DNA of 61,148 nt, taken from NCBI GenBank assembly GCA_016296945.1, contig JAEDHQ010000001.1, positions 1 through 61,148 of the forward strand. Reading direction: 5' to 3'. The position numbers and the translations under genes are program-made. The notes under the pieces were generated by a model that ran no database searches, was not told the DNA's origin, and saw only the letters and a list, made by a program, of their open reading frames with translations. Below are positions 14,851-43,083 of this stretch, piece after piece; position 1 is the first letter of the stretch; the number at the start of each line of letters is the position of its first letter. This DNA comes from Bacilli bacterium. Its GTDB lineage: Bacteria; Bacillota_I; Bacilli_A; ML615J-28; CAG-698.

Positions 14851-14975
14851 AAACCCCTATCCTTTCATCTAGACTTTTACTATCGGTATTGGAATTTCAC
14901 CAATTCAGCAATTTAGTTTCTAAATCGCTCGCGGACTATTACCACCGGTCTGGAATTACACCATGCCCCGAATAT
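14851..14975 (-). promoter_or_regulatory. FMN riboswitch (RFN element) in the ribU leader
   Basis: The minus-strand RNA reads uucggggcauggugu aauuccagaccgguggu aauaguccgcg ... uuggugaaauuccaauaccgauaguaaaagucuagaugaaagga. This matches the RFN consensus blocks GGGGCAGGGUGAAAUUCCCGACCGGCGGUAGUAAAGC and CCGACAGUGAAAGUCUGGAUGGGAGA. The SD (aaaggauagggg) lies immediately after the aptamer, which is consistent with translational control. Confidence 0.8.
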
Positions 14976-16927: not shown

Positions 16928-17027
16928 ATCATTCACCACCAACATAATTATATTACAATGATTTTAGTTTTTCAAATATATCTTTATTTATTCGACAAAT
17001 TATGATAAAATACCAACAGGTGATTTT

Positions 17028-28073: not shown

Positions 28074-28080
28074 AACCCAC

Positions 28081-28905
28081 CTAAATTTTATAAATATATT
28101 CTTTTCTTTTTATAAAGTAAATTAATTCATCAAATCCCATTTCTTTAATTACTGCTATATGTTTATCAAAATCTAATCGATATTTACTTGCTTTATGCGC
28201 ATCACTTGATAAAGTTAGTTTTTTACCACCACATTCTTTATATAGTTTTAATAAATATCGTAGGTGATCATCAAATTGATAATTTTTATCATTTTGCAAA
28301 TATATCTCATTAATCACTTTTAACACTTTGGAATTTATTTCTAATGCTTTATTATTTTTAACTAATAATTGTAATATTTTTTTTATTCTTTCTTCATAAT
28401 CACTGAATTTATAGTGATAATCAATCATCACAATAGTTTTAAATGCAAAATCAATATGGGATAAAACATCAAAATTACTAAAAGTATTTAAAGCTTCTTC
28501 TGTAATATCAAAATACTCTTTCATGATTTTCTCAACTCCACTAGCAAATGTTTCTTTAAAGTAGTAATCACCTTTGCCACTATCATGGATACTTAATTGA
28601 ATCAAATCATAATCATATTTATTTGCAATTTCAATCATTTCCTTTAAATAATCTTTTCTGTATCCTAATTCTATTCCTAATAATGGTGTAATATCTGTAA
28701 ATTCTTGCTTTAATTCTTCTTGTGTTGCTATTAATTTATCATAATCTACATCCCAAGTTGTACCATCTACTGTCGTATGAAAATCGTAATGTTCACATGT
28801 TAAGAGATATTTAATTCCTATCCTTTTTGCTTCAAGATAGTAATTTCTTAAATCTTCAGTTGAATCTTTAGAGAAGGAAGAATGCATATGTTGATCATGC
28901 AACAT
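28081..28905 (-). CDS. PHP-domain phosphoesterase (histidinol-phosphatase HisJ/YwqE-like family)
   Basis: N-terminal MLHDQHMHSSFSKDS (HxH...D metal-binding start of PHP domains). 274 aa. Confidence 0.55.
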   Translation of the reverse strand: MLHDQHMHSSFSKDSTEDLRNYYLEAKRIGIKYLLTCEHYDFHTTVDGTTWDVDYDKLIATQEELKQEFTDITPLLGIELGYRKDYLKEMIEIANKYDYDLIQLSIHDSGKGDYYFKETFASGVEKIMKEYFDITEEALNTFSNFDVLSHIDFAFKTIVMIDYHYKFSDYEERIKKILQLLVKNNKALEINSKVLKVINEIYLQNDKNYQFDDHLRYLLKLYKECGGKKLTLSSDAHKASKYRLDFDKHIAVIKEMGFDELIYFIKRKEYIYKI

Positions 28906-28914
28906 AATTTATAC

Positions 28915-29433
28915 CTAAATTCTTTCAATAGTTTTAATTTTAATAATTGGATATGGAAAATCTGCAAACATATTGCTTATAAATTCTGTACGAGCTTGAT
29001 TTAATTCTTCTAATACCTTATATGATTCTTCACCTACTACTTTACCAAAAGCAGCATATTCTCCATTTAAATGTGGGGCATCAGCTGTACAAATAAAGAA
29101 TTGAGAAGATGCAGAATCCTTAATACTTGTTCTTGCCATTGAAACAACTCCTAAAGTATGTTTCAAATCATTTTTAACACCATTACTTTGAAATTCACCC
29201 TTAATTGAAGCAGTTTCATCTGCTTCATATAATTCATCGCCGTCTAATTTATAACCACCTGTTTGCACCATAAAATCACGAATTATACGGTGAAAGATTA
29301 CTCCATCATAATATTTTGCATCTACTAAATTTAAAAAGTTTGAAGCACTTATTGGAGCAATATCTTCATATACTTCAATATCTAAATGTTTTCCATTTTC
29401 TAAGATTAATCTTACTTTATTCATATAATACAC
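28915..29433 (-). CDS. ppiB: Cyclophilin-type peptidyl-prolyl cis-trans isomerase
   Basis: FHRIIRDFMVQTGG and WLNGEYAAFGKVV motifs. 172 aa. Confidence 0.9.
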   Translation of the reverse strand: MYYMNKVRLILENGKHLDIEVYEDIAPISASNFLNLVDAKYYDGVIFHRIIRDFMVQTGGYKLDGDELYEADETASIKGEFQSNGVKNDLKHTLGVVSMARTSIKDSASSQFFICTADAPHLNGEYAAFGKVVGEESYKVLEELNQARTEFISNMFADFPYPIIKIKTIERI

Positions 29434-29518: not shown

Positions 29519-32020
29519 TTATTTAAGAATGAAATCAATCTTGACACTACATTCACCAGCAACAGTTGGAGTTTCAAAGCTTAAGTAGTATTGTGTAGCT
29601 GTACCACTTGAGACCATTGATTGAATTAAATTTTTAGCATTCGTATCTAAACAGTTATCATGAACACCAATAATATAATCATATGAAGAGGTAAAAGTAG
29701 ATAAATTCTTACCGCTTGCTAAGAATCCGACTACTTCATATAGTCCTAATTCATTATTATACTTTAGAAAAATTCTATCCCAGTATAATCCAGATACAGT
29801 TCCTGCTTTATCGCTTGACCCAAGCATAACATAATTGCCATTTCCATAACTTGTGTTATATCTTGTTGCGGTAATTGATTCGGACACATTTGTTAAGTAT
29901 ATTTCTTTTACAAATTCTGAAGTGTCTCCATCTTGATATGCTTTGATTGCAATTTCTAAAATATTACGTGTGACAGAAAAACTTGAAAATTCATAAATGT
30001 AATTACCTAAGTTTTCACTATCTTCATATTTTACATATGCTATTACACTTATATCTTGATTATACTTTTCTTTTGGAATATTATAAACAACAACATGAAA
30101 TGTGGTATTACTACCTGTTATAACCTTTTGAATTAAGTTGTTTCCATTAATAGTTGTACTATTACTTCTAAATGCTGCAATAAATTCACTTGCAGAATGT
30201 GTTCCCACAGCAAGAAGAAAACCATGTTCAACTGATTCTTCTAAAGTATCAATTGTAGCACTAAATTTAAGTCCTTGACGTTCGCCTGTTGTTCTAACAC
30301 TTGCTCCATCAATTAATTCTAATTGATATTTATCATTTAAAGAATATATTGTTTTTTCTCCTAATGTATTAGAATATGATAATGCTCGAATACCATAATT
30401 ATAACTACCGCTATCACTATCAGTCCAAGTAAAACTACTATTACTTCCACCAACAATATCAATCAATTCACTAGAATCAAATGTGACTTCACTACTACTT
30501 CTATAGATTGCATAGAATTTTGCATTGTCTAATCTATCCCATGTTAATGTTTTACCATTAACGATAAAATTATTCACTTTTCCTAAATGAATTGGATTAA
30601 TTGATTTAATTTCTGGTTGAACTACTTTAATTTTCCAACAGTTTGTTCCTAAGTGAGATGCTTGGAGGGCTGATTTTGAAGTTCCACCATCATAATACTT
30701 ACGTAAATGATCAAAATTATAAAGGCTTGCTCCACTAACATTTTCTAATGTTGTAAGATAGTTTAATTGATTATATAATTCATTTGAGTCAGTATACCAA
30801 GAAGTTGAAGTATATGTATCAGGCCAATATAAACCAATTCCTGAGTATAAATTAACATCTAAATTCTTTACTACTTTGTCCCACCAACCCATTACTTTTT
30901 TATATCCAGCAACAGAATGATCAATTGCCCAATAACTTTGTGGCATGATGTAATCAATCCAGCTTTTACAACACCAATATACAGTATCAGAGAATAAATA
31001 TGATGAATAATGAGTTTGTCCACCAGTACTAGAACCATCTGTAATTGGCCAACCATTGCCTTCATATGTTACTTCCCCACTACCATTTTTATATATTCCA
31101 GTTGGAGCAACGCCAATTTGGATATATTTGTTATTTATTTCATTAAAACTATTTACAGCACTATTTAATTGCTTAAAAAACAGATTACATTGAACACGGC
31201 GCCAATCTGCTTTATGCAACGCATTAGTTACTGTATAACTTTTACGATAGTGTTCATATTCAGCTTTATCTTCAGCACTTAAACTACTAAAATTATTACA
31301 AAAATTAACATATAAGTTATTATCTGCTTCATCTAAAATAGTAGTAGTTCCTGATGTTTTTCCATTTGCACCTAAATCAATATAGAAATAATCATCAAAA
31401 TGAACAGCATCAACATCATATCGTGAAATAAATTCAATCACTGTATCAACTACATGATCTCTTACTTCTTTGATTCCTGGATTTAAGATTGCTCTATCAT
31501 CATATACTAAGATATTATCTGAATTACTAGCAGAATTTAGTGGATAACTAGTATATTTATTAGCAACTACTTCAGCACTAATTGCACCTGAATTTGTAAT
31601 TCGATAAGGATTCATCCAAGCATGAAATTCAATTCCCCGCTTATGACATTCTTCAATAAGCCAAGCAAGAGGATCAAATGTATTAAAATTCACTTTACTC
31701 CATCCTGAATAAACAGGATTAATGTCTGATTTATATAATGCATCATTCATTTGACGCACATGAAAGATTAAAGTGTTGAGATTACTTGCCTCTAAAACAT
31801 TAAAAATATATTCCATATTTGTTTTAAAACTAGTTTCACTAGTATAATTTACTATTGATGCATCAGTAATAGGCGTAACCCAGACTGCTCTTAATTCACT
31901 TGCAGGATCAACATAATTATATGTAGTTGCTTTTGTTTCCACATTTACAGTTTCTAAAAAACAACATATTGATAATATCAACAATAAAAAACTTAGGACT
32001 TTTTTAACTATCTTCTTCAT
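29519..32020 (-). CDS. Secreted glycoside-hydrolase-like family 10 (GHL10/DUF187, YngK-like) protein with C-terminal beta-sandwich/carbohydrate-binding region
   Basis: Signal peptide. LRAVWVTP...LNTLIFHVRQMNDALYKSDINPVYSGW, the characteristic start of the GHL10 TIM-barrel. 833 aa. AGGAG RBS. Confidence 0.6.
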   Translation of the reverse strand: MKKIVKKVLSFLLLILSICCFLETVNVETKATTYNYVDPASELRAVWVTPITDASIVNYTSETSFKTNMEYIFNVLEASNLNTLIFHVRQMNDALYKSDINPVYSGWSKVNFNTFDPLAWLIEECHKRGIEFHAWMNPYRITNSGAISAEVVANKYTSYPLNSASNSDNILVYDDRAILNPGIKEVRDHVVDTVIEFISRYDVDAVHFDDYFYIDLGANGKTSGTTTILDEADNNLYVNFCNNFSSLSAEDKAEYEHYRKSYTVTNALHKADWRRVQCNLFFKQLNSAVNSFNEINNKYIQIGVAPTGIYKNGSGEVTYEGNGWPITDGSSTGGQTHYSSYLFSDTVYWCCKSWIDYIMPQSYWAIDHSVAGYKKVMGWWDKVVKNLDVNLYSGIGLYWPDTYTSTSWYTDSNELYNQLNYLTTLENVSGASLYNFDHLRKYYDGGTSKSALQASHLGTNCWKIKVVQPEIKSINPIHLGKVNNFIVNGKTLTWDRLDNAKFYAIYRSSSEVTFDSSELIDIVGGSNSSFTWTDSDSGSYNYGIRALSYSNTLGEKTIYSLNDKYQLELIDGASVRTTGERQGLKFSATIDTLEESVEHGFLLAVGTHSASEFIAAFRSNSTTINGNNLIQKVITGSNTTFHVVVYNIPKEKYNQDISVIAYVKYEDSENLGNYIYEFSSFSVTRNILEIAIKAYQDGDTSEFVKEIYLTNVSESITATRYNTSYGNGNYVMLGSSDKAGTVSGLYWDRIFLKYNNELGLYEVVGFLASGKNLSTFTSSYDYIIGVHDNCLDTNAKNLIQSMVSSGTATQYYLSFETPTVAGECSVKIDFILK

Positions 32021-32141
32021 AGTTTTTTACTCCTGACAACTCTTCAAAATTCACTTCACCAGTATTACTAAAAGTAATGATATCTTCTTCTATTTCAATA
32101 ATTTCAATAAATGGTACTTGATATTCTTTTTTCATTTTCAT
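32004..32141 (-). CDS. Candidate 45-aa acidic small protein (MKMKKEYQVPFIEIIEIEEDIITFSNTGEVNFEELSGVKNYEEDS)
   Basis: Strong RBS AAGGAGAAAGG 8 nt upstream of the ATG at 32141, placed 18 nt after the upstream lipoprotein stop. The 3' end overlaps the start of the GHL10 gene by 17 nt. It is below the size cutoff of the ORF track. Confidence 0.3.
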   Translation of the reverse strand: MKMKKEYQVPFIEIIEIEEDIITFSNTGEVNFEELSGVKNYEEDS

Positions 32142-32158: not shown

Positions 32159-33424
32159 TTAGTATGGTTTTGTCCAGTTAGGATCATTGATTTGATAGGT
32201 TACTACGACTATTTCATCGTGCATTTCAACTTTTATATATTTATAATCCGCTTCAACATTATTTACAATTAGTTTAAAGTTGTTGCTTAACACTAATCCT
32301 TCATTTAATGTAATAATTGTTTTAATATAGATATAATCTAATGGCTTATCTATTCTAGCTTGATAGCGATCAGAACAACTACTAACAATATAATTAGTTG
32401 TGTCTAAAGTAATCTTAATTTCTCTAATGATGTTATCATTATAATTAAATGTGAGTGTTTTATTAGTTAATGTATACCCATCTTCTACTTCTTCACCATT
32501 TAATTTTAAAATGAATCTTGGAGAAAATAAACTATCATCAATAATTTCTATTGCAATTTCATAGAAATAGTTATTAACCTGATATGATAGTTTTAACTTT
32601 AAATCATTAATTGTAACTAACTTATTTTCAAAATCAATCTTTAAGTCTATTTCCTTGATTTTGTTATCCTTTATAGTTAAAGATATTTTATCATCTTCAA
32701 TATGATAATCAACTTGATTAACTACTGAATCGTTTACTTTTAATATTACATCTTCACTTAACTTTGCTTCATCATTGATTGTAATTATTATATTTATGAC
32801 TTCATAATCTAAAGTCGAAATAATCTTTGCTTGATATGTCGCATCATCGCAGTAAATAACATATTTTTCATAATCAAGTTCTAAAGTTATAGTTTTTATT
32901 TCTTCTTTAAATGCTTCTATTATTTGGTTACTAAATATTCCTGGATTACTGACTGCTAAATTATAAATACTTTCTGTATATAATTTATCACTATAACGGA
33001 ATTTGATTTCTTTCTTACTTTCATATTTATAATATAATCTAACACTTACATATTTTTTAAAGTTATCTTCAAGATCATTATCAAATAAATATGAATAATT
33101 ATTTGAATCGTTTAAAATAATATTATTATTGTATTCTATATTTCCGACGATAAAATCATTTTTATCAATATCATTTTTATAACTAATTAAAATTCCAAAA
33201 GATATAATCTTTTCATTTAATTCCTGATTATATTCATCACAATCTGATATATTATTATATTTGAAATCAATTTGAAGTCCTTTTTCTTGATTATTAATTT
33301 TAATATCTATTTGTTCAAAACCATTTGTTTCTATTGATTTTATTCTTTGATCATTACACCCAAGAATAAATGATCCTAATAGTATAAACAATAAATAAAT
33401 AGCAATATATCTCTTTTTCATCAT
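32159..33424 (-). CDS. Lipoprotein of unknown function with internal repeats
   Basis: Lipobox LGSFILGC-N. 421 aa, rich in N/K/I/D with a repetitive beta-rich composition. First gene of the GHL10 operon. Confidence 0.5.
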   Translation of the reverse strand: MMKKRYIAIYLLFILLGSFILGCNDQRIKSIETNGFEQIDIKINNQEKGLQIDFKYNNISDCDEYNQELNEKIISFGILISYKNDIDKNDFIVGNIEYNNNIILNDSNNYSYLFDNDLEDNFKKYVSVRLYYKYESKKEIKFRYSDKLYTESIYNLAVSNPGIFSNQIIEAFKEEIKTITLELDYEKYVIYCDDATYQAKIISTLDYEVINIIITINDEAKLSEDVILKVNDSVVNQVDYHIEDDKISLTIKDNKIKEIDLKIDFENKLVTINDLKLKLSYQVNNYFYEIAIEIIDDSLFSPRFILKLNGEEVEDGYTLTNKTLTFNYNDNIIREIKITLDTTNYIVSSCSDRYQARIDKPLDYIYIKTIITLNEGLVLSNNFKLIVNNVEADYKYIKVEMHDEIVVVTYQINDPNWTKPY

Positions 33425-33548: not shown

Positions 33549-34253
33549 ATGTTTATAATAGAAATGGCAAAATTAAAAATTAAAATTAATAACCGTTTTT
33601 CTTTTTTAGAAAAACTTTGCAAAGACTATATTATTGATGATGAAACTTATGATTTTGAGGTTTCAGTAACTGATGATGATATTAATAAAGAGAAAAATGC
33701 CAGTGATGGTAACTTTTCTGTAGGTTATTTAGAAAGTATTTGTATTTATCGTAAGATATCAGAAAAAGTTCCCCAATATAATTGTATATTATTACATGCA
33801 GCAGTAATTAAAGTTGATAATGATGCATATGCTTTCTGTGCAAAATCTGGTACGGGTAAAACTACTCATACAAAACTATGGATGCAATTATTAGGTGATA
33901 GAATGTCATATATTAATGGCGACAAACCATTAATTAGAATTATTAACGATCAAGTATATGCTTTTGGAACTCCATGGAATGGAAAAGAGCAATATGGTAC
34001 TAATTCTTATGCAAAGTTAAAAGCGATTGCTTTTATTGATCGTGATATTACAAATTCTATTATTCATCTTCCAAAGATTGAAGTGTTACCCCGAATTATT
34101 CACCAAATATTATTACCTAAAGATGAGGATAATTTATCTAAGACTTTTGAGATATTAAATGAAGTTGTTGGTAAAACAAATACTTATTTATTAAAATGCA
34201 ATATGGATATAGAAGCGGCACAAATAGCCTATACACAAATGCGAAAGGACTAA
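33549..34253 (+). CDS. P-loop protein resembling the HPr kinase/phosphorylase C-terminal domain (HprK-related kinase family)
   Basis: 234 aa. P-loop AKSGTGKTTH preceded by LLHAAVI and followed by NGDKPLIRII, which is the same arrangement as HprK-C GxSGxGKS ... D.. Has its own promoter and AAAGAGG RBS. Translationally coupled to the next gene. Confidence 0.4.
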   Translation: MFIIEMAKLKIKINNRFSFLEKLCKDYIIDDETYDFEVSVTDDDINKEKNASDGNFSVGYLESICIYRKISEKVPQYNCILLHAAVIKVDNDAYAFCAKSGTGKTTHTKLWMQLLGDRMSYINGDKPLIRIINDQVYAFGTPWNGKEQYGTNSYAKLKAIAFIDRDITNSIIHLPKIEVLPRIIHQILLPKDEDNLSKTFEILNEVVGKTNTYLLKCNMDIEAAQIAYTQMRKD

Positions 34254-34255
34254 CT

Positions 34256-34885
34256 ATGGATAATATCACTAGACGAGATAATCAATTAGCTTATATTACA
34301 GATGAAAAAGTAATTAAACAAGCAAAAGAAACAAGAAAAAAATTACAAATATTTAATAATACTGATTGGTCAGATTTTGATAAGTTAAAAATCCTTGCTT
34401 CTAAAATTTTAGGAAAAAGTGAAAATCCATCAATCACTCCCCCTTTTTATTGTGATTATGGTTTTAATATTGAAGTAGGTAAAAACTTTTACGCTAATGC
34501 TTTTTGTACAATTTTAGATGTAGCTAAAGTAAAAATTGGTGATAATTGTTTATTAGGTCCAAATGTATCAATCTATACTGCTGGGCATCCTATTCATCCA
34601 ATTGCTAGAAATAGTTCTTATGAATATGGTAAAGTAATTACAATCGGTGATAACGTATGGATAGGAGGTAACTCTACAATCTGTCCTGGTGTAAAAATAG
34701 GAAATAATGTTGTGATTGGCGCTGGAAGTGTTGTTACAAAAGATGTTCCAGATTGGACTGTGGCCGCGGGAAATCCGTGTAAAGTTTTAAGAATTATTAC
34801 TGATGATGATAAAAGAAAATTATATAAAAACGAAGAAATTGATGATGAGGCTTGGAAAAACATATGTTTATCTTTTAATCTTTAA
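34256..34885 (+). CDS. Hexapeptide-repeat sugar O-acetyltransferase (maltose/galactoside O-acetyltransferase, Maa/LacA family)
   Basis: Left-handed beta-helix repeats GDNVWIGGNSTICPGVKIGNNVVIGAGSVVTKDVP. N-terminal Mac-type helical domain. I prefer the start at MDNITRR (34256, AAGGA RBS), 2 nt after the upstream stop. Confidence 0.8.
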   Translation: MDNITRRDNQLAYITDEKVIKQAKETRKKLQIFNNTDWSDFDKLKILASKILGKSENPSITPPFYCDYGFNIEVGKNFYANAFCTILDVAKVKIGDNCLLGPNVSIYTAGHPIHPIARNSSYEYGKVITIGDNVWIGGNSTICPGVKIGNNVVIGAGSVVTKDVPDWTVAAGNPCKVLRIITDDDKRKLYKNEEIDDEAWKNICLSFNL

Positions 34886-34952: not shown

Positions 34953-34992
34953 CAATAACAAAAAATAAGTTCCTTGATTTCAAGGAACTTAT
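34953..34992. terminator. Bidirectional terminator. It is strong on the minus strand, where it ends the flotillin operon.
   Basis: aaataagttccttga-tt-tcaaggaacttattt. The minus strand is followed by TTTTTTG. Confidence 0.6.
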
Positions 34993-35079
34993 TTAATATT
35001 ACAATACTTATTCTTCCTGTGGGCTTTGCAAACACTATACTTTCCAACTATTATTACTTAATAAAATAATTAGTATGAA

Positions 35080-36603
35080 CTATTCTTTCTTTTCATTATT
35101 AGAAATCAATTTACCACCTAAATAACCTGCTAATAAAGATTTAACATCGATTCCTGTTGCTTTTTCTAATCCTTCAAAAATTTGAGTACCGTTTTTTGAT
35201 ATTTCTTCTGTTAATTTAGCAGTGTTTCCTTCACCATACATCACAATTGAATCAATCTTGCTCATTGCTTCTGCAACTGGTTTACTGTAAGCATTAACAA
35301 TCTCTGGTAAAACTCCTGAGTCCAAAATTAATTGCAATGTTGCTGCTTCGCCATATTGTTTCATCGCATCTGCTTTTGCTTTGATGGCATCTGCTTCAGC
35401 CTTCCCTTTTGCTTCAATTCCAGCCGCTTCAGCTAGTGCTGCTTCCTTCAAAGCATTTGCTTTTGCAATTTGTGCACTTGCTTCGGCTTCGGCTTGAATT
35501 TTTAAAGCTTCTGCTTCTTTTTGTTTTTTTACTTTATCTGCTTCAGCTTTAATCTTTTGCATTTCTGCTTCTTGTTCTAATTCATATTTTTTTGCTTCAG
35601 CTGCTTTTTGGCGAGTAAACAATTCTGCTTCTGCTTCTTGTTGGGCAGCATATTTTTTTGCTTCCGCAACCTTATTAATTTCTGCAGCTAATTTCTTTTC
35701 TTGAATTTCTACTTCACGATTTTCTAATTCAACCATTCTCTCACGCTTTGCAATATCAGCATTTATTTGCGCAATATTTATTTCTTGCAATCTCTTTTGC
35801 TCTTCAATTTTATAGGCAGCATCTGCTTGGGCTTTAGCAGTATCCGTTTGTTGTTTTAATTCAGATTCTTTTAAAGACAATATTGTATTTTGTTCAATAA
35901 TCTTTTGATTTGCTTCAACTCTACTTCTATTTGCTGCTTCTTCAGCTGAAGATTTTGCAATTGTAACATCACGATCAGCATTTGCTTTCGCAATAGCAGC
36001 ATCTTTTGATATTTGTGCAATATTGTCAATACCTAAATTTTCAATCACATGATTATCATCAGCAAATGATTGAATATTAAAGTTTACAACTTCAATCCCC
36101 ATTTTAGCCATATCTGGTACAACATTTTCTTTAACAGAGTTGGCAACACCTTGGCGATCTTGAACTAACTTCTTAATATCAACAGTACCAACAATTTCAC
36201 GCATATTACCTTGCAATACTTGTTGAACTTGTTTAATTAAATTTTCTTCAGACATATTTAAAATTGCTTCAGCCGCTCTTTCTAATAATGCTGGATCAGA
36301 TGAAATTTTTAAGTTTGCAACGCCATCTACTCTAATATTTATAAAATTTGAAGTAGGAATTGCTTCATCTGTTTTAATATCAACTTGGAATACTCTTAAT
36401 GATAATTTATCTAGTCTTTGTAAAAAGGGAATTCTAAATCCTGCCTTACCAATTAAGATTTTTCTTTTTCCCCATCCTGAAATAATAATTGCTGTATCTG
36501 GTGCTGCTTTTACATATCCAGTTATAAAAAATACAATCAACAATGCAATGATTGCTAAACCAGCAATAATCCAACCGCCTGTACCGATTAAAAATAAAAA
36601 CAT
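35080..36603 (-). CDS. floT: Flotillin-like SPFH/Band-7 protein (FloT/YuaG-type)
   Basis: N-terminal TM anchor. SPFH domain. Long E/A/K/Q-rich coiled-coil (EAEA...AKKYELEQEAEMQKIKAEADK). 507 aa. AAAAGGAG RBS. Confidence 0.8.
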   Translation of the reverse strand: MFLFLIGTGGWIIAGLAIIALLIVFFITGYVKAAPDTAIIISGWGKRKILIGKAGFRIPFLQRLDKLSLRVFQVDIKTDEAIPTSNFINIRVDGVANLKISSDPALLERAAEAILNMSEENLIKQVQQVLQGNMREIVGTVDIKKLVQDRQGVANSVKENVVPDMAKMGIEVVNFNIQSFADDNHVIENLGIDNIAQISKDAAIAKANADRDVTIAKSSAEEAANRSRVEANQKIIEQNTILSLKESELKQQTDTAKAQADAAYKIEEQKRLQEINIAQINADIAKRERMVELENREVEIQEKKLAAEINKVAEAKKYAAQQEAEAELFTRQKAAEAKKYELEQEAEMQKIKAEADKVKKQKEAEALKIQAEAEASAQIAKANALKEAALAEAAGIEAKGKAEADAIKAKADAMKQYGEAATLQLILDSGVLPEIVNAYSKPVAEAMSKIDSIVMYGEGNTAKLTEEISKNGTQIFEGLEKATGIDVKSLLAGYLGGKLISNNEKKE

Positions 36604-36621
36604 AAATTAACACTCCTTTTC

Positions 36622-37047
36622 TTACTTAATTATTTTCCTTATATAATGCTTTATTTTTCGAAAAATTCTATTTCTTACTCTTTTCTTATAATACCTAATA
36701 TATTCTTTATTATCATTGCTTACATATGTTTCCCCACGATAAAAACCATCTACAACACCAATTATCATCTCATCAGTAACATTATATTCTTTTATAAATT
36801 GATTATCACCACATAAGACATAACTATCTTTTTTAACCCCAATTATTCGATGCAAAACATAAGTTTTATCTTTACGCTGATAAAGGATGACATCATATTT
36901 TTTAAGTCTTTTCGTTGGTTTAACTAATCTAACTGTATCAAGTCTTTGCCTAATCATTGGCATCATACTTGTCCCAATTGGTGTTGCAATATAATAACCA
37001 TTTTTTTCTATTAATTCTTTATATGAAATACTATTCAAGAATACCAC
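36622..37047 (-). CDS. Small soluble S26-family (signal-peptidase-like) serine peptidase with an apparent Ser/His dyad. It uses a GTG start.
   Basis: Box B GTSMMPMI. Box D YVLHRIIGV, with His where bacterial SPase I has the catalytic Lys (as in SipW/Sec11). Box E LCGDNQ. No TM anchor. The GTG start overlaps the PqqD gene end by 17 nt. Confidence 0.5.
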   Translation of the reverse strand: MVFLNSISYKELIEKNGYYIATPIGTSMMPMIRQRLDTVRLVKPTKRLKKYDVILYQRKDKTYVLHRIIGVKKDSYVLCGDNQFIKEYNVTDEMIIGVVDGFYRGETYVSNDNKEYIRYYKKRVRNRIFRKIKHYIRKIIK

Positions 37048-37297
37048 TCTTTTCTAATTTTTCAATAAATTGATTAATATGTTTGCTTGCTTCACTTTCT
37101 AAAACATCATATTCTGCTAGCATCTTCTTTAGTAATTCTTCCTTTTCAATTCCTTCAGCCAAATTCTTCCATAAGAATGCTCCCGTTTCATTTAAGGTAA
37201 TCATTCCTTTAAATTGCAAACTTGCTTTTCCAACAGGAACTACTGCATAACTTCCTGCAACTTCACGTAACATAAAACCTTCTTTTATTTTAATCAT
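37031..37297 (-). CDS. PqqD-family protein (RiPP precursor-peptide recognition element, RRE)
   Basis: 88 aa. ...ITLNETGAFLWKNLAEGIEKEELLKKMLAEYDVLESEASKHINQFIEKLEKSGILE is a near-textbook match to the PqqD consensus (LNeTGafIW ... YdV ... fl..L...gli). Its ATG overlaps the upstream gene's stop as ATGA. Confidence 0.75.
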   Translation of the reverse strand: MIKIKEGFMLREVAGSYAVVPVGKASLQFKGMITLNETGAFLWKNLAEGIEKEELLKKMLAEYDVLESEASKHINQFIEKLEKSGILE

Positions 37298-38472
37298 ATT
37301 TTTACTCCTGTTATTTCTTTAATCATATTAATTTCCTCAACTTTTTTGTAATTAACATTTTGAATAGTTTGATATGTTCTCTTATGAGTCTTAAAATTAA
37401 ATAATCCTTTTACTAACCTTTCAAACCAAAACCAAGGTAATAAGATTGGAATTTTTGATAAAATTGGATTTCTTCTTTTCATTACTTTAAATGGTGGAAA
37501 TAGTTTCTTTATAATCAAATGTTTTTTACTTTTTTCTAAATCATCTTTGTTTTCTAAAGAATTAACCGCTGAATTTTCAACAGTTCCATATGTTCCACAT
37601 TCAAGTATATAATTTAAAACTAAGTTAATATCTTCTTCTTTGATTTTATCTATTTTTCCTTTAAAAATATAATCACTAATAGCAATTAATGTACAAGAAA
37701 ATTTATCTAACTCTAAAGACTTAAGTTCTGAATTAATATAATTAAAATCTAATTTCTTTTGTTCTAAATAATAATATAAATCTATAATTGTACGAAGACC
37801 TGTTCCCCCGTGGCCAAAGTGTTTAGCCGCATGAACAATCATAAATACAAAGAAATCTTCATCACTTAGTTCATATAAATATTGTTTATTTTCAGCTAAT
37901 CTCACACGATCCCAAATGTTATCATAATAATTAACACCATATGATTCATCAATCATTCCCCGATGCAACTCAATATTCATATAAGGCTTTTTTATGTAAT
38001 TGTCGTGATTGCCACCCACATTATCTACAGTATAACCTATTTCTTTTAACACATTACCAGCTTTTTTTAAATCATCAATTGGAATTAAGATATCTAAGTC
38101 AGCCATTGATCTATATTGTAAATCAGGATATAGTTTACGAATTAAAGCTCCTTTTAATGGCATATGTTTGATTTTATAATGTTCCAATTCACTACATATA
38201 ATCTCTAGTTCTCCATCCTGAATTAATGATTTATATGCATTAATTGTAGCAATTTTTTTAAACGTTTTAAATATGTCTTGTTCTTCATCGATTATTAATT
38301 GTTTTAATCCTAGATATGTAATATATTCAAGACTATGAAACTTAGCATATTTTATTATTCTTTCTAAATTAAAACTATCTAAATCATCAATATGAATTTC
38401 TTTTCTAAGAATAACACTTTTTATTATCTTTAAAAAATTTAATTTATTAGGATCTCTATTCATTATACCCAT
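37294..38472 (-). CDS. Nucleotidyltransferase-family protein of the 'uncharacterised nucleotidyltransferase' (NTP_transf_5-like) type
   Basis: About 390 aa. Central GALIRKLYPDLQYRSMADLDILIP...HRGM region resembles the Pol-beta-like NTase core (G[SA]...D.D). This family is recurrently found next to PqqD proteins in Firmicutes lasso/RiPP loci. The probable start is the ATG at 38472 (GGATGG SD). Confidence 0.5.
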   Translation of the reverse strand: MGIMNRDPNKLNFLKIIKSVILRKEIHIDDLDSFNLERIIKYAKFHSLEYITYLGLKQLIIDEEQDIFKTFKKIATINAYKSLIQDGELEIICSELEHYKIKHMPLKGALIRKLYPDLQYRSMADLDILIPIDDLKKAGNVLKEIGYTVDNVGGNHDNYIKKPYMNIELHRGMIDESYGVNYYDNIWDRVRLAENKQYLYELSDEDFFVFMIVHAAKHFGHGGTGLRTIIDLYYYLEQKKLDFNYINSELKSLELDKFSCTLIAISDYIFKGKIDKIKEEDINLVLNYILECGTYGTVENSAVNSLENKDDLEKSKKHLIIKKLFPPFKVMKRRNPILSKIPILLPWFWFERLVKGLFNFKTHKRTYQTIQNVNYKKVEEINMIKEITGVKI

Positions 38473-39353
38473 GGCAACCATCCACTATCAACATTTTCAG
38501 TATATTCATAATTATCTAAAAAAGAGAAGTCACAGATAATTTCATTTTCATCTTTTGTTAATTCATATTTTTGCGCATTGATTGTAAAAAAGTTATTAGT
38601 ATAAATACATATGTTATTATTATTAGATTCAATCTTATATAACATTGTTTGTAAATCTGGATCGAAATCAGCTTCGATAAAATATATTTTTTTAATCTTT
38701 GCAAGAAATTCTTCTACTTCTTCGGTTTCTTCAAGTTTTTTAGATTTATTAATTTCTTTTCTTATTATTGTAATCTTTGAACCAAATAACTCTAAATCCG
38801 TAAATGACATTTTATTTTTAGGTAGTACTGTAACATTAATAATTAAATTTATTATTGGGTAATCTTTTAAATATAAATTTATTGTAGTTGAACCTTCTTG
38901 TAAAGCAATAATTTTATTTCCTTCTACCACACAAATTTTATCATCATTTACTTCTACAATTATCTCTAAATCGTTTGTTGCTTGAATATTGAATTCTTGT
39001 ACTTCGTCTACTTTTAATTCATAGTTTAAATTATCGCTTGTGATTTCTAAACTGCTTATTACTGTTACATTTATAGTTTCATTAATACTTGAATCACTAA
39101 TTAGAAATAATGTGATTTCACAACTTCCTGTTTTATATGCTTTAATTATTCCATTCTTAAAAATTGCCACTTCTGGATTACTATTAGCTGCAATAACTGT
39201 TTCATTAGCTGATACTTCATATCTTATCTTGACTTCTTCGCCAACTTCTAATGTTATTTTTTTATCTTCTTCTTGCAAATTAAGATATTTTTCTTCTTTA
39301 CAAGAAATTAAAAAACTTAATAAGCACAAAATAACTATTAATAATTTCTTCAT
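38463..39353 (-). CDS. Lipoprotein with two Big_2 (bacterial Ig-like) domains
   Basis: Lipobox FLISC. Big_2-like blocks (TLEVGEEVKI...NPEVAIFKNGIIKAYKTGSCEITL and a second copy). AGGAGA RBS. Confidence 0.55.
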   Translation of the reverse strand: MKKLLIVILCLLSFLISCKEEKYLNLQEEDKKITLEVGEEVKIRYEVSANETVIAANSNPEVAIFKNGIIKAYKTGSCEITLFLISDSSINETINVTVISSLEITSDNLNYELKVDEVQEFNIQATNDLEIIVEVNDDKICVVEGNKIIALQEGSTTINLYLKDYPIINLIINVTVLPKNKMSFTDLELFGSKITIIRKEINKSKKLEETEEVEEFLAKIKKIYFIEADFDPDLQTMLYKIESNNNNICIYTNNFFTINAQKYELTKDENEIICDFSFLDNYEYTENVDSGWLPWV

Positions 39354-39437
39354 AGTTTGTCTCCTAAATCTTTTAAATATTTTTAATTATTTATATTCTA
39401 TCATATAAACAAATTATTTAAAAGATTATTTAAAAAA

Positions 39438-39460
39438 ATATAAAATAATGCCTAATTAAG
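39438..39460 (-). terminator. Intra-operon hairpin (partial terminator/attenuator) between the MutS-like pair and the downstream five genes
   Basis: taatgcc-ttaatt-aaggcatta followed on the minus strand by a T-rich tract. A possible TATAAA/-10 and AGGAGA RBS for the lipoprotein gene follow. Confidence 0.35.
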
Positions 39461-39463
39461 GCA

Positions 39464-40900
39464 TTATATTTCTTTTATTTTATATTTATTTGTTTCATCA
39501 CTTGTTTCATATAATTTGACATCACTTACAAAATTTCTTCTTTCATCAAGAATTGTAATTAGATGAGTAACATCAATCCATGTTACATTAATTAAAGAGA
39601 AGTAATTTAAGATATCAAACAACGCACGTTTACCATCTTCTGCAAATGTTGATTGGAAAATCTCATTTATAATTACTAGGGATTTATCATTTACTTTATC
39701 GATTATTTCTTTAATATCGATTACTTCTTTTTCGAAACGACCGCCAACATCTGTATCTTTTTCTTCTCCTGAAAAGATTGTCGTAACGCTTTCTTTAATT
39801 TCCACTTTTGCTTGATCACAAGCTACAAATAATCCATTTTGGAAAAAGATTTGGTTAATTCCGATTGTTCTTAGTAAGACTGTTTTTCCGGTATTATTAG
39901 ATCCAACCACTAAAACACTTTGCTTATTAGCAATTGAGATATTATTTCCATATATAGGAGCAGAATATCCTTCGATAATATATTTCATTGAAAGGTATAT
40001 ATCTTTGGCATTTTTATAATCTGTCTCTTTTGCGATTTCAGGAAAAGAACAATCAATTTTTCTTTCACCTAATGAATCATATAAAGAATTTGCAAATTCA
40101 AAGAAAATAAATTCATCACTAAAATAGCTTATTTCATCATAAAGACTTTCATAAATATCTTCTACAATTACAACAACACGATTAAATGAATCAATCACAA
40201 TTCGTGAAAAATCATCTTTTACTTTTGGATTAATTTCAATCTTGCCGTCACTTCTTTCTTTTTTTCTAAATATACTTACCTTTTCACTAGTATATTTACC
40301 ACTGCATAATATAAACTTATTATCAATTGGCATTAATTTATCATCAAGATTAGTATAAAACGCAAAAGCAGAATGTTGTTCAATTATTTCTTTAATCACT
40401 TTTTGAAGTTTTTTAAAATAAACATTTTCAATTCGGTTATTGATTTTCTTTGCTAACTCTTTTAATCCAACTGATGAAGGAGAGTATGTTACAAATAATT
40501 CATTTAAGCGAATATATATTTCAATTAGTTTATTAATATCTTGAGCATAATCTTTAAGCATCATCGTTGTCTCAGAAATCTCCATTTCGGATTTAACTTT
40601 CAATTTTGCACGACTAGAACGGGTAGCATTATAATCACTATAGCATTTATTAAGATTAAATGATTCCCGACCTAACCCATAATAAAGACTGCGATTATAC
40701 ATCATATCACGCATTACACTTTGACGATATTTAATTGTTTCTTCATCAGTACAAATACTACCTAAAATATCTAATATTTTTTCTTGTTTTCCTTTATCAA
40801 CAAAGACATAGCGAACAATTGAATCTATTTGAAGATCGTGTAATGCATTGTTGACGGATCCGATTTTTTCCTTACCAAATGGATATAATAAACTACTCAT
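39464..40900 (-). CDS. MutS-family domain-V ABC-ATPase protein, paralog B (no mismatch-recognition domain I, no Smr)
   Basis: Walker A/MutS signature VLVVGSNNTGKTVLLRTIGINQIFFQNGLFVACDQAKV (compare MutS GPNMGGKSTYMRQ..LAQ.G.FVPA). Walker B region VIINEIFQSTFAEDG (compare MutS LDELGRGTSTYDG) has N-E instead of D-E. 478 aa. Confidence 0.68.
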   Translation of the reverse strand: MSSLLYPFGKEKIGSVNNALHDLQIDSIVRYVFVDKGKQEKILDILGSICTDEETIKYRQSVMRDMMYNRSLYYGLGRESFNLNKCYSDYNATRSSRAKLKVKSEMEISETTMMLKDYAQDINKLIEIYIRLNELFVTYSPSSVGLKELAKKINNRIENVYFKKLQKVIKEIIEQHSAFAFYTNLDDKLMPIDNKFILCSGKYTSEKVSIFRKKERSDGKIEINPKVKDDFSRIVIDSFNRVVVIVEDIYESLYDEISYFSDEFIFFEFANSLYDSLGERKIDCSFPEIAKETDYKNAKDIYLSMKYIIEGYSAPIYGNNISIANKQSVLVVGSNNTGKTVLLRTIGINQIFFQNGLFVACDQAKVEIKESVTTIFSGEEKDTDVGGRFEKEVIDIKEIIDKVNDKSLVIINEIFQSTFAEDGKRALFDILNYFSLINVTWIDVTHLITILDERRNFVSDVKLYETSDETNKYKIKEI

Positions 40901-42395
40901 TACCTTTCTTCCTTTCTAATAATTGTTGTTTTGTTAAACCGTGTTTATACAAAATATCATCGACATATGATAATAACTGTTTTTCTACTTTCTTTATTTT
41001 GTGTGTTCTTATATTAGATTTTCCTTCCATTACTACCGGTGTAAAAAAACCAATTCTCGAATCATGAATTTCCTCAAAAATTTTATATTGATGCGTTACA
41101 TACATTACTTTAGCTTGGGTATTACCAATATCATTAAGTAATTGTTTTGTATAAACGCACGCTTTTTCTTCACTAGTTGATGAAAATGTTTCATTTAAAA
41201 AAGCAATAGAATCGGGTCCGAAATGAGATTTAATTATATCAAGACGTTTAATTTCATCACGAAGACGTCCTTCACCAAAACTATAGTTTTCTTCATTTGG
41301 AAAATGTGTACATATATATTTTACAGGATATACTTTAGCACTTTTTGCAAACATATACCCACAAGTCATAAAGTATACATAATTTGCCCCAATACTACGA
41401 AGATAACAAGTTTTACCACCACTATTAACTCCTAAAACAAAAGATATATTTTCTTTCCCATCAATATAGAAATCATTAGGAATAACATCAATTTTACTTA
41501 CTGTTAAACTAACATCATATGCATCTGTAATTGAAGTTTTGTTTTCTTCATTCACCACTACCTTACAAAAAGGAATACCTTGTTTATTAACTTTTGTAAA
41601 CATTGTTTTTAAACTTAATAAATATTTAAATTCACTAACTAAGCTACTTAAATCAGTTACTTTTTGATGATTTGATTCGTAAAATTCAGCAATTTTTTCA
41701 TAAGTTGTTTTATCTTGTAAAGATATCTCATATAAAAAATATGGATTTACTTCTTTTTTCATAATTTGACGAGGGGTTTTAACTAATTCAATATTTAATC
41801 CTTTTACAATATCTAATAATTCATCTTCTAAATTAGTTTTTTTATCAAAAGTGATTTTATAATATGGTGCCCCTTCATGAAATTCCGCATTAAATTCAAA
41901 ATGACTTGTAATATAATCATATAAATTTTTTACTTCATTTCTTAAAGTTTTTACTTCATTATCATCGAAAATGCTATCAATTTTTACAATTAAATCAGTT
42001 AATCCTTTTGATTTTACATTTAATTTTATTAACACATCTTTTGTAATTGTTAGGAATTGATAATAATGATATATATACATTATTAAAAATATACGTCTTT
42101 TGATGTTTTCGGTTGCTTCTCTTAAAGAAATAAAGCGACCAACTAAATCAGTTAAACGATAATATAAATTTTCTAATAAACCATCCTTATCATTTAATAA
42201 ATCTTCAAAAATTCCTTGCCGATATAATAATGATTCTTTTGATGGAATAAGTTTCATAATTTCTTGCATTTCATCAACATCACTGTAATTATCAAAACAA
42301 CATTCTAATAATTTTGTTATTTTTAAATCGCTAAAGACTGCATCATCTAATTTACTAACTGCTTCATCATTTTTCCATAATAAACTAAAGGCCAT
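40893..42395 (-). CDS. MutS-family domain-V ABC-ATPase protein, paralog A
   Basis: Walker A/MutS signature ISFVLGVNSGGKTCYLRSIGANYVYFMTCGYMFAKSAKV. Walker B region IAFLNETFSSTSEEK, also N-E. 500 aa. AAAGGAGGA RBS and a TGaTATACT extended -10 upstream. 8-nt overlap with paralog B. Confidence 0.68.
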   Translation of the reverse strand: MAFSLLWKNDEAVSKLDDAVFSDLKITKLLECCFDNYSDVDEMQEIMKLIPSKESLLYRQGIFEDLLNDKDGLLENLYYRLTDLVGRFISLREATENIKRRIFLIMYIYHYYQFLTITKDVLIKLNVKSKGLTDLIVKIDSIFDDNEVKTLRNEVKNLYDYITSHFEFNAEFHEGAPYYKITFDKKTNLEDELLDIVKGLNIELVKTPRQIMKKEVNPYFLYEISLQDKTTYEKIAEFYESNHQKVTDLSSLVSEFKYLLSLKTMFTKVNKQGIPFCKVVVNEENKTSITDAYDVSLTVSKIDVIPNDFYIDGKENISFVLGVNSGGKTCYLRSIGANYVYFMTCGYMFAKSAKVYPVKYICTHFPNEENYSFGEGRLRDEIKRLDIIKSHFGPDSIAFLNETFSSTSEEKACVYTKQLLNDIGNTQAKVMYVTHQYKIFEEIHDSRIGFFTPVVMEGKSNIRTHKIKKVEKQLLSYVDDILYKHGLTKQQLLERKKGNE

Positions 42396-42449
42396 ATAAT
42401 TCCTCCTTTTATTAATTTTTAGTATATCATAACTTATAAAAAAATAAAA

Positions 42450-42473
42450 GATGAAATCATATTGATTTCATCA
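42450..42473 (-). terminator. Rho-independent terminator of the upstream zinc-ribbon gene. It also defines the 5' boundary of the MutS-PqqD-flotillin operon.
   Basis: gatgaaatca-ata-tgatttcatc followed by ttttatttttttat (minus strand). Confidence 0.5.
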
Positions 42474-42480
42474 AATAATA

Positions 42481-43083
42481 TTACTTAATTTGTAATTTTT
42501 CTTGTTTATTTTTCTTAGCAATAATACTACCTTGGATAGCAGCACCAATTCCTGTAAATACTAAATTCATAATCATATCATAGATAAATGCACCCTTATA
42601 TTCTGCGATAGAAAAGATGTAGGCTAATCCATTTAAGTTACTGCCATCTGTAATTGCAAGACCATTTCCAATTACTATCCACATAAAGAAACAAACAAGT
42701 TCAAACATTACTAAAACTGTCGCAGTTGAGATTAAAACTCTAAACTTATCTTTTTTACCTTCAAATTTTACATATAAGAAGTCAGCTAACATAACAGCAA
42801 ATAAAGCAATTAATGCGGAAACAAATCCTAATTGATATAAAATAAACCAAGCAACACAACCTACTGTTGCTCCAATTAATGAGCCTAAAAAGCCTTTAAA
42901 ATAATTACCTGGAATCTCTTTAAATTCTTTTTCTTGTAAAGTACTTGCTTCTCTCATACTATTAGCACAAGCAGGATCAACTGTAACATATACATCATTA
43001 ACTTGAATTTTTTCATATTCAACTAATTCTTCACCACATGCTGGGCAAAAGCCTTTTCCTTTTACTCCTTGATCTTTCATCAT
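42481..43083 (-). CDS. Zinc-ribbon (CPACG...C) membrane protein with 4 TM helices. It may be 5'-truncated by a frameshift.
   Basis: GFCPACGEELVEY...VDPAC zinc ribbon followed by TM helices. The reading frame stays open for 100 more codons upstream (43084-43383) without any ATG/GTG/TTG. Confidence 0.5.
   Translation of the reverse strand: MMKDQGVKGKGFCPACGEELVEYEKIQVNDVYVTVDPACANSMREASTLQEKEFKEIPGNYFKGFLGSLIGATVGCVAWFILYQLGFVSALIALFAVMLADFLYVKFEGKKDKFRVLISTATVLVMFELVCFFMWIVIGNGLAITDGSNLNGLAYIFSIAEYKGAFIYDMIMNLVFTGIGAAIQGSIIAKKNKQEKLQIK

Follow-up and report, generated by a model that had tools for sequence, protein, structure and literature searches.

We have analysed a window of 61,148 nt (the whole stretch of DNA under consideration, at its full length) from an uncultured low-GC (27%) metagenome-assembled genome (MAG) of Bacilli type, with emphasis on the region 35080-42473, which a first-pass annotation had described as a single overlapping operon of seven genes and proposed as an undescribed system for the maturation of a peptide at membrane microdomains. 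All seven open reading frames (ORFs) were found on the minus strand, each where that annotation had placed it. In the order of transcription they encode two paralogous ATPases related to domain V of MutS, a lipoprotein of 296 aa, an enzyme with the nucleotidyltransferase (NTase) fold, a PqqD-family recognition element (RRE) for peptides that are made on ribosomes and modified after translation (RiPPs), a small serine peptidase of the S26 type, and a flotillin. According to our analysis, and with considerable confidence, this region consists of three unrelated pieces: some of the genes for a linear polyphosphorylated peptide (LPP), whose kinase and precursor genes lie outside the flagged coordinates; a MutS-like module; and a lipoprotein and a flotillin that are specific to the lineage. 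Because the edges had been set by strand and spacing, the kinase and the precursor, which define the system, were left out and four unrelated genes were taken in.

The LPP genes inside the flagged region follow one another closely. The gene lppN (37294-38481, minus strand) encodes a NTase-fold enzyme of 392-395 aa, which matches the NTP_transf_5 family (PF14907) with 170 bits; the reported overlap of 10 nt with the lipoprotein gene that precedes it (38463-38472) holds provided that translation starts at the ATG at 38472, as in the 392-aa call. An ATGA junction (37294-37297) leads from lppN to lppB (37031-37297, minus strand), the product of which is a discrete PqqD-family RRE of 88 aa and a predicted leader-binding adaptor (PF05402, 55 bits; lasso_PqqD models of NCBIfam are also matched). 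Against the PDB, the RRE of the window used alone gives a weak match to the lasso protein PbaB1 (0.006) and misses LppB, which is found only with the family profile; with that profile the matches are TbiB1 (1.4e-9), TfuB1 (1.7e-8), LppB (9x8z, 1.5e-6) and PbaB1 (9x90, 7e-6). The gene lppS (36622-37047, minus strand) overlaps lppB at 37031-37047, by 17 nt with a GTG start, as annotated, or by 8 nt if the TTG at 37038 preferred in public gene calls is right. It encodes a soluble SipW/Sec11-like (S26) leader peptidase of 141 aa with no transmembrane (TM) or hydrophobic segment and with Ser27, His66 and Asp81 as predicted catalytic residues. Hidden Markov model (HMM) matches of this protein to S24/S26 and SipW are below threshold; its AlphaFold2 (AF2) model has a predicted local distance difference test (pLDDT) score of 93 and finds Streptococcus pyogenes SipA, human SEC11C, bacterial SPase I and LexA-type domains as best matches in the PDB, and the Ser/His/Asp triad is kept in 59 of 60 homologues. 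A word-based search of the homologues of the window peptidase for the LppS of P. alginolyticus retrieved close relatives only, and no Paenibacillus entry. Overall, the domain assignments of the first-pass annotation were recovered by profile searches for NTP_transf_5, PqqD, Band_7/FloT and (in the second ATPase) MutS_V, and through the structural model for the S26 peptidase; Big_2 in the 296-aa lipoprotein was not, the sole match of that protein being a sub-threshold one to HL_N-beta.

It had also been stated that none of the usual partners of an RRE is present. This does not hold: a kinase gene (33549-34253, plus strand) and a precursor gene (32004-32141, minus strand) lie just beyond the flagged coordinates, and they had been overlooked because both are outside 35080-42473. 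The first, lppK, is convergent with the flotillin gene and encodes a HprK/ScmC-like P-loop kinase of 234 aa with the Walker A sequence SGTGKTT. Taken alone, the window kinase has faint matches to HprK_rel_A/B (E ~0.007) and to ScmC (PF27840); in its family of 27 members, ScmC is matched by 21 (best 1.6e-10) and HPr(Ser) kinase by 11 (best 1.8e-5), and the Walker A residues G101, G103, K104 and T106 are invariant. A profile of the family yields only insignificant P-loop matches in the PDB (TsaE 0.03, PEPCK 0.16, HprK 0.77).

To find the precursor, small ORFs with a ribosome-binding site (RBS) were screened around the cassettes of the survey described below. In 28 loci this brought out a family of peptides whose genes lie a short way upstream of that for the kinase; a family HMM was then built from 29 precursors of related loci, and it recognizes members in about 40 loci, the window included. 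The leader of the family reads M-K-E-x-Y-E-x-P-E-M-E-V-x-E-F-E-x-E-D-V-I-T-T-S, or, written more loosely, Y-x-x-P-x-M/L-E-V...ED-V/I-I-T-T-S, and is followed by a hypervariable tail of 8-30 residues, mostly acidic and rich in Pro and Gly. The window member is an lppA-type precursor peptide of 45 aa, MKMKKEYQVPFIEIIEIEEDIITFSNTGEVNFEELSGVKNYEEDS (family HMM E = 1.3e-6, 30 bits), with a GGAG RBS ahead of its ATG; on contigs of the same species, public gene calls independently place an ORF of 43 aa at this site. Its leader carries the YxxP motif (Y7..P10..S25), and Ser25 stands 18 residues after the Tyr, a distance that is 19 in most members of the family.

The conservation of these genes was assessed in 88 loci anchored on homologues of the window NTase, 80 of them from a scan of one genome per species with a 15-sequence NTase alignment; all 88 were annotated with iterated HMMs derived from the window proteins, while the count for the flotillin rests on a phmmer step. 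An exact look-up of the window NTase returned nothing on record. PqqD was found in 59 loci, the S26-like peptidase in 61 and the HprK/ScmC-like kinase in 55, and the NTase, PqqD, peptidase and kinase occur all together in 51. Clustering of all the neighbours of these 51 complete cassettes identified a sole further common partner, a fused MsbA-like ABC exporter of ~570 aa (38 of the 51), and the typical gene order is precursor-kinase-RRE-peptidase-exporter-NTase. By comparison, the MutS-like pair was scored in 5 loci, four of which are close relatives (L001-L004) and the fifth of which (L006) has a canonical full-length MutS ~8 kb off; the 296-aa lipoprotein was scored in 5, and the flotillin in a single one (L001). 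It can be seen that only PqqD, the peptidase and the NTase, among the seven genes, recur widely, and the view of the seven as a functional unit conserved as a neighbourhood is contradicted, as the MutS-like pair, the lipoprotein and the flotillin are missing from more than 90% of the loci that have the RRE/NTase/peptidase core.

Two Lachnospiraceae MAGs provide a different type of evidence: in L043 (287-1954) and L044 (3976-5643) the S26-like peptidase is fused to the NTase in single ORFs of 556 aa, with the peptidase at residues 12-125 and NTP_transf_5 at residues 184-552. Such fusions are Rosetta-stone evidence for a shared substrate or for membership in the same peptide complex, and they argue that LppN acts on the peptide, although it showed no activity in the published model described next.

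The core recovered in this way corresponds to the LPP family of RiPPs reported by Popov et al. (Nat Commun, 20 May 2026; PMC13381572) for the lppA-K-B-S-D-N cluster of Paenibacillus alginolyticus DSM5050, and the claim that the system is undescribed has to be given up; correspondence to a characterised system was among the refuting conditions that the first-pass annotation had itself set. In that work LPP clusters are recognized by an archaeal-type SipW-like signal peptidase I co-localized with a discrete RRE, and their precursors by the motif YxxPxVLxHQxIxFETxxS; the P. alginolyticus cluster was expressed in Bacillus subtilis, and the cleavage of the leader was assayed in vitro (PMC13381572). 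LppK adds up to four phosphates to Ser3 of the core, and LppS (WP_029196374.1), for which S29, H68 and D93 are essential, cuts after T-1 and requires LppB, the unphosphorylated precursor being a poor substrate; LppN had no detectable activity (PMC13381572). With its Tyr at position -16 and its Ser at position +3, LppA has a spacing of 18 (PMC13381572).

The window matches this description in most of its parts: the SipW-type Ser/His/Asp peptidase is soluble and its gene overlaps that of a discrete RRE of the lasso-B1 kind (by PF05402 and by the family profile), a HprK-like kinase and a PF14907 NTP transferase are encoded in the cluster, and the precursor has a YxxP leader, a conserved Ser 18 residues past the Tyr, as in LppA, and a variable C-terminus; the HQxIxFET portion of the published motif is not conserved. 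There is no cyclase, and neither a macrolactam synthetase (C) nor a transglutaminase-like B2 protease was found among the large ORFs of the window or the called genes of syntenic contigs. In the Clostridia relatives of the survey the gene order A-K-B-S-D-N is identical to the published one. The differences are also clear. No MsbA-like ABC exporter is encoded between 32004 and 42395; the genes form three units on two strands (N-B-S, K, and A), with the flotillin and acetyltransferase genes between units; and lppN and lppA each have a lipoprotein gene immediately upstream. The core peptide is short (~20-23 aa, vs 45 in the published system) and very acidic, the predicted cleavage site, between I22 and T23 or one or two residues further on, is preceded by D-I-I rather than F-E-T, and the host is an uncultured MAG rather than a Paenibacillus. 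We take the cluster in the window to be a divergent, split and exporter-less member of the LPP family; taken alone, it is an ordinary and somewhat eroded one.

Two other groups of known systems share features with the LPP genes of the window. The lasso clusters for paeninodin and pseudomycoidin (PadeK/PsmK, PsmN, B1, D) have the same tailoring pair of a HprK-family kinase and a NTP_transf_5 enzyme, a B1-type RRE and an YxxP/WxxP motif in the leader; in pseudomycoidin, a Ser receives several phosphates from PsmK, and the addition of a hexose to the phosphate depends on PsmN (PMC6993621). Unlike those clusters, the window has no C or B2 protein, its leader peptidase is a non-homologous serine enzyme of S26 type, its product is predicted to be linear, and the modified Ser is near the N-terminus of the core and not at the C-terminus. 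The peptidase, in turn, resembles SipW and Sec11 in the S26 fold, in the GxSMxP box of the Ser and in an HR box that replaces the bacterial Lys, and differs from them in having no TM anchor, a length of 141 aa and a basic amphipathic pair of helices at the C-terminus; by homology it would act in the cytoplasm on a leader presented by the RRE, whereas SipW and Sec11 act on Sec signal peptides.

While the gene content, its conservation at the level of the family and the precursor emerge from the present data, the chemistry is carried over from the literature and is stated here by analogy. The RRE would bind the YxxP of the precursor leader, as in the homologous system of P. alginolyticus, and the kinase would put several phosphates on the conserved Ser25, the predicted position +3 of the core. 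The RRE would then present the leader to the soluble S26-type peptidase, by which the leader would be removed. Finally, further decoration of the phosphate is probably the task of the NTase-fold enzyme, in the same way as PsmN adds a hexose to phospho-Ser in pseudomycoidin. The first-pass annotation was right in part: its proposal of a peptide-maturation (RiPP) machinery around the PqqD RRE, the NTP_transf_5 enzyme and the Ser/His S26 peptidase is borne out, and its suggestion that the RRE serves the protease agrees with the dependence of the published LppS on LppB for cleavage (PMC13381572), by analogy with which the peptidase of the window would be the client of the RRE.

A number of observations weigh against the assignment of the window genes to the LPP family, or against their being an active and separate cluster. 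Against the exporter profile, the nearest ABC pair of the window (22376-25896) reaches 313-336 bits, where genuine members have no less than 561 (median 855); these scores are too low, and the pair was rejected as a candidate LppD. The genes of the cluster are distributed over three transcription units and both strands, and signs of decay are visible in the relatives: L089 has neither the NTase nor the precursor, and the search for a precursor found none in L004, L005 or L006. Relatedness to the published LPP proteins was measured only as the RRE profile vs 9x8z (E = 1.5e-6); the same profile scores LppB no closer than the lasso B1 proteins (1.4e-9), and a place inside the published LPP clade is therefore putative. 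The window kinase is weak by itself (E ~0.007), and its single-sequence AF2 model has a pLDDT of 36. Finally, the MutS-like pair keeps adjoining LPP genes in L001-L004 and L089, which leaves a small probability of a lineage-specific link.

One alternative accepts the LPP pathway and supposes that it has been rewired in this lineage, the phospho-(glyco)peptide being delivered or attached to proteins of the envelope, or acting on them, instead of leaving the cell as a free molecule, with the flotillin and the lipoproteins as lineage-specific accessories. We consider this unlikely; it is raised because a lipoprotein gene precedes that of the precursor, the LPP genes are interspersed with a second lipoprotein gene and the flotillin gene, and no dedicated exporter is present. 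The first of these lipoproteins, of 421 aa, is encoded at 32159-33424 (minus strand), immediately upstream of lppA; it has a signal peptide with its Cys, a hydrophobic segment at the N-terminus and the C-terminal sequence ...DPNWTKPY. Homologues adjoin the LPP genes in L001, L004, L005 and L016, and a related lipoprotein does so in L006; in the window, L001 and L016 it is this DPNWTKPY-ending lipoprotein whose gene lies upstream of the precursor. The protein is an associated neighbour, outside the published LPP core. A more general pattern is seen across the survey: in about 22 of the 34 assessable loci, the gene of a large secreted or surface protein (600-2150 aa) is directly upstream of the precursor, on the same strand and within 100 nt. 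Loci in which a gene ends at most 100 nt upstream of the precursor are L007, L020, L024, L028, L031, L038, L039, L041, L044, L046, L050, L053, L058, L059, L069, L074, L076, L084 and L087. The upstream proteins carry various domains, among them BspA LRR_5 with Flg_new, cadherin-like, DUF6273 and NlpC/P60, but two types of C-terminal sequence recur among them. This pattern suggests that LPP peptides are linked with envelope proteins; the portions of the text of PMC13381572 that were searched make no mention of it. On its other side, the precursor ORF overlaps by 17 nt (32004-32020) the start of a gene for a secreted GHL10 protein of 833 aa (29519-32020, minus strand), a pairing also present in L001 and in the same-species contigs L093-L095; in L004 the GHL10 gene comes directly after the lipoprotein gene, with no precursor in between.

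A second alternative takes the LPP genes of the window for a decaying and non-functional remnant, in which the exporter has been lost, the genes have been scattered, neighbours have been inserted, and no mature peptide is made. The absence of a LppD-type exporter, the opposite orientation of lppK, which is placed behind an acetyltransferase gene and an inserted gene for the flotillin, the partial clusters of the relatives mentioned above (L089 without lppN and lppA; L004, L005 and L006 with no precursor detected) and the frequent gain and loss of LPP clusters described in PMC13381572 are all consistent with this possibility, and the window copy could be on its way to loss. Several observations point in the opposite direction. 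The five LPP ORFs are all intact and have good RBSs, and there is conservation both of the catalytic and of the Walker residues. In the precursor, the YxxP is retained and the Ser stands at the distance expected from it. L001 has kept the precursor too, although a pseudogene would have decayed at such a divergence (NTase 85% identical), and many independent metagenome contigs show this arrangement as well. We thus regard a dead remnant as quite improbable; because all the LPP ORFs are intact and conserved in L001, the cluster is probably functional.

The third alternative is the original one, a single novel system made up of all seven genes, with the NTase or the peptidase served by the RRE and with the product organized or exported at membrane microdomains by the flotillin and the MutS-like ATPases. 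In its favour, the genes share a strand and are tightly spaced, their order recurs in L001 and in L093-L095, the MutS-like genes adjoin LPP genes in L002, L003, L004 and L089, and the missing exporter calls for some other route of export. The comparison of relatives argues against it. The complete order is repeated only in the close relative L001 (NTase 85% identical) and in the same-species contigs L093-L095. In L002 and L003 (NTase 62% identical) the 296-aa lipoprotein is gone and a MutS-like gene directly precedes lppN; in L004 and L005 (53% identical) the flotillin is gone; L006 (43% identical) has a lipoprotein, a ScmC-like gene, the NTase, PqqD, a S26-like gene and an ABC transporter, with no adjacent MutS-like genes and no flotillin. 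Among the 51 complete cassettes the MutS-like pair is confined to close relatives and the flotillin to L001, while the flanking housekeeping genes are conserved in those same relatives, and so the adjacency looks like plain synteny. The published LPP core has no such genes (PMC13381572).

The transcription signals of the region point the same way. At its outer limits, the annotated terminators do correspond to terminator-like hairpins, one belonging to the upstream gene (42450-42472, minus strand; seen at 42472-42450), which marks the upstream boundary of the unit of the MutS-like pair, and one with a 14 bp stem and a T-run downstream of the flotillin gene (34963-34994, minus strand; seen at 34994-34963); likewise, there is a strong RBS, AAAGGAGGA, ahead of 42395. 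However, the single operon proposed on this basis overlooked a further terminator-like hairpin (39445-39467, minus strand), which overlaps the stop codon that ends the second MutS-like gene. A T-run and a promoter-like site (TTTAAA..TG.TAGAAT at 39422-39395) come next, and 110 nt separate the second MutS-like gene from the 296-aa lipoprotein gene. Because of the hairpin, the promoter-like site and the gap, one transcript of seven genes is doubtful, and the block probably comprises at least two transcription units.

The MutS-like genes themselves (39464-42395, minus strand) encode a pair of paralogous ATPases with MutS domain V only, of 500 aa (40893-42395) and 478 aa (39464-40900), and overlap by the 8 nt (40893-40900) originally reported. 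The first protein matches MutS_V with 26.7 bits, which is below the Pfam cut-off, and the second with 53.5 bits, its best NCBIfam match being a KamC-type ATPase domain (77-78 bits). The pair resembles the ATPase core of the KamC reactivase and of MutS2, a C-terminal ABC-type ATPase domain V with a GKT Walker A; where the Walker B of MutS has D-E, inspection by eye shows N-E in both proteins (IAFLNETF and LVIINEIF). In contrast to members of the MutS family, neither protein has a match to MutS domains I-IV or to the Smr domain, and the scores against the NCBIfam MutS, MutS2 and KamC models, 21-78 bits, are far below all of the equivalog cut-offs (300-642); the proteins cannot be placed in MutS1 or MutS2. 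No TM segments were found in them, which speaks against a role at the membrane. This is a narrow family, with 48 clusters found, in low-GC Bacilli-type MAGs, and always as an overlapping pair of paralogues, which probably form a heterodimer.

The pair occurs with no LPP genes nearby in L090, L091 and L092. In L090 (54% identical) it is directly followed by genes for a peptidyl-prolyl isomerase (PPIase), a PHP protein and a DUF4838 protein, which in the window lie at 26322-29433, beyond the LPP block, and everything that in the window stands between the pair and these genes is absent; in L091 and L092 the neighbourhoods are quite different; and in L089 the pair is followed by a reduced remnant lppB-lppS-lppK, without lppN and lppA. 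From the pairs without LPP genes and the remnant of L089 it therefore appears that, in one lineage, the LPP genes are a variable island beside a conserved MutS-like module. As judged from these occurrences, the pair is an independent two-gene module outside the LPP system, and nothing supports the proposal that these ATPases drive export.

The flotillin (35080-36603, minus strand; 507 aa) is FloT-like, with 78 bits for Band_7 and 258 bits for FloT, and it shares with the FloT (YuaG) of B. subtilis the N-terminal membrane anchor, the SPFH/Band_7 domain and a coiled-coil tail rich in Ala and Glu. It differs from the FloT/YuaF pair in its lineage-limited position and in the lack of an adjacent NfeD gene: its upstream neighbour is the S26-like peptidase, downstream there is a terminator, and no NfeD Pfam match was obtained among the neighbours, on which ground a flotillin-NfeD module was discarded. 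Between lppS and the flotillin gene there is a gap of 18 nt with a RBS and no terminator, and the two are probably co-transcribed. A flotillin gene follows lppS only in this species (L093-L095 included) and in L001, and is absent from that position in L004, L005 and L006; by this distribution the flotillin is outside the conserved LPP system, with no functional link indicated, and we found nothing in support of a role in rafts. In the place of the flotillin gene, L004 (3907-4970) and L005 (2312-3375) have ~1 kb without a convincing ORF, which may be a decayed gene or non-coding. The 296-aa lipoprotein (38463-39353, minus strand), with lipobox ...LISC and C-terminus ...SGWLPWV, is encoded upstream of lppN in the window; it is present in L001, L004, L005 and L093-L095 and absent in L002 and L003, and is a lineage-specific neighbour. 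Taking these results together with the synteny and the internal hairpin, we hold a seven-gene system to be very improbable.

The last alternative, a lasso or radical SAM (rSAM, SynChlorMet-type) RiPP cluster with its class-defining enzyme encoded elsewhere, deserves almost no credence: the RRE profile does match lasso B1 proteins best, the leader bears the lasso-type YxxP, the kinase family matches the ScmC of the SynChlorMet cassette, and relatives of the Ruminococcus flavefaciens group have a rSAM/SPASM gene between precursor and kinase, but no asparagine-synthetase-like cyclase, B2 or rSAM is found among the annotated neighbours and large ORFs of the window, none of the three is a recurrent neighbour of the 51 cassettes (an adjacent rSAM/SPASM gene occurs in only 2 of the 88 loci), SynChlorMet would need two PqqE-like rSAM/SPASM proteins in addition to ScmC and ScmD, and a set without a cyclase works as a pathway in its own right (PMC13381572). 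Both types were accordingly rejected, the lasso cluster for want of a cyclase or B2 and the SynChlorMet cluster for want of a rSAM gene. An anti-phage defence system was also discarded, as a comparison of PADLOC models with nine proteins (the seven ORFs and two neighbours) gave no match at E <= 0.001.

As a separate observation, the rSAM/SPASM gene of the R. flavefaciens group encodes a protein of 459 aa and was seen in L059 (1811-3380) and L046 (5314-6855). The core peptides of this group contain Cys (e.g. ...ITTSCPSHIEGGCDFF), and these loci may be hybrids of the LPP with a thioether-type RiPP.

With the LPP assignment of the window cluster, the survey extends the family from its Paenibacillus model to Clostridia of the rumen and the gut (Lachnospiraceae, Ruminococcus), to Erysipelotrichales and to Acholeplasma-like Bacilli MAGs, and to hundreds of hypervariable acidic core peptides. 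Leads on the role of LPPs are offered by the peptidase-NTase fusions, the rSAM hybrids, the exporter-less variants and the recurrent gene for a surface protein upstream of the precursor. LPPs have been described as restricted to Bacillota (PMC13381572); two complete LPP-type cassettes with precursors, L029 in a Spirochaetales MAG and L039 in an Alistipes MAG, are in bins assigned outside this phylum, which could reflect horizontal transfer or mis-binning.

Some other genes of the window may be mentioned briefly. Upstream of the MutS-like pair, 42481-43083 (minus strand) encodes a protein of 200 aa that has several membrane segments and, at its N-terminus, a zinc-ribbon-like CPxC motif; its counterpart has 306-307 aa in L001, L002, L003 and L094, and the window copy may be truncated or differently started. 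Directly after lppK, a hexapeptide-repeat gene of the maltose/galactoside O-acetyltransferase type (34256-34885, plus strand; 209 aa) begins 2 nt past the lppK stop; it has a Hexapep Pfam match and scores 191 bits, below the cut-off, against the NCBIfam maltose O-acetyltransferase. It is present in only 5 of the 88 loci, and may be either a tailoring gene specific to the lineage or a neighbour with no relation to the LPP genes. Finally, a protein of 656 aa encoded at 14975-16945 (minus strand), ~15 kb from the precursor gene, contains a NAGPA phosphodiester glycosidase domain (73 bits), which is worth noting because products of the LPP/PsmN type are expected to bear sugar-phosphodiester groups.

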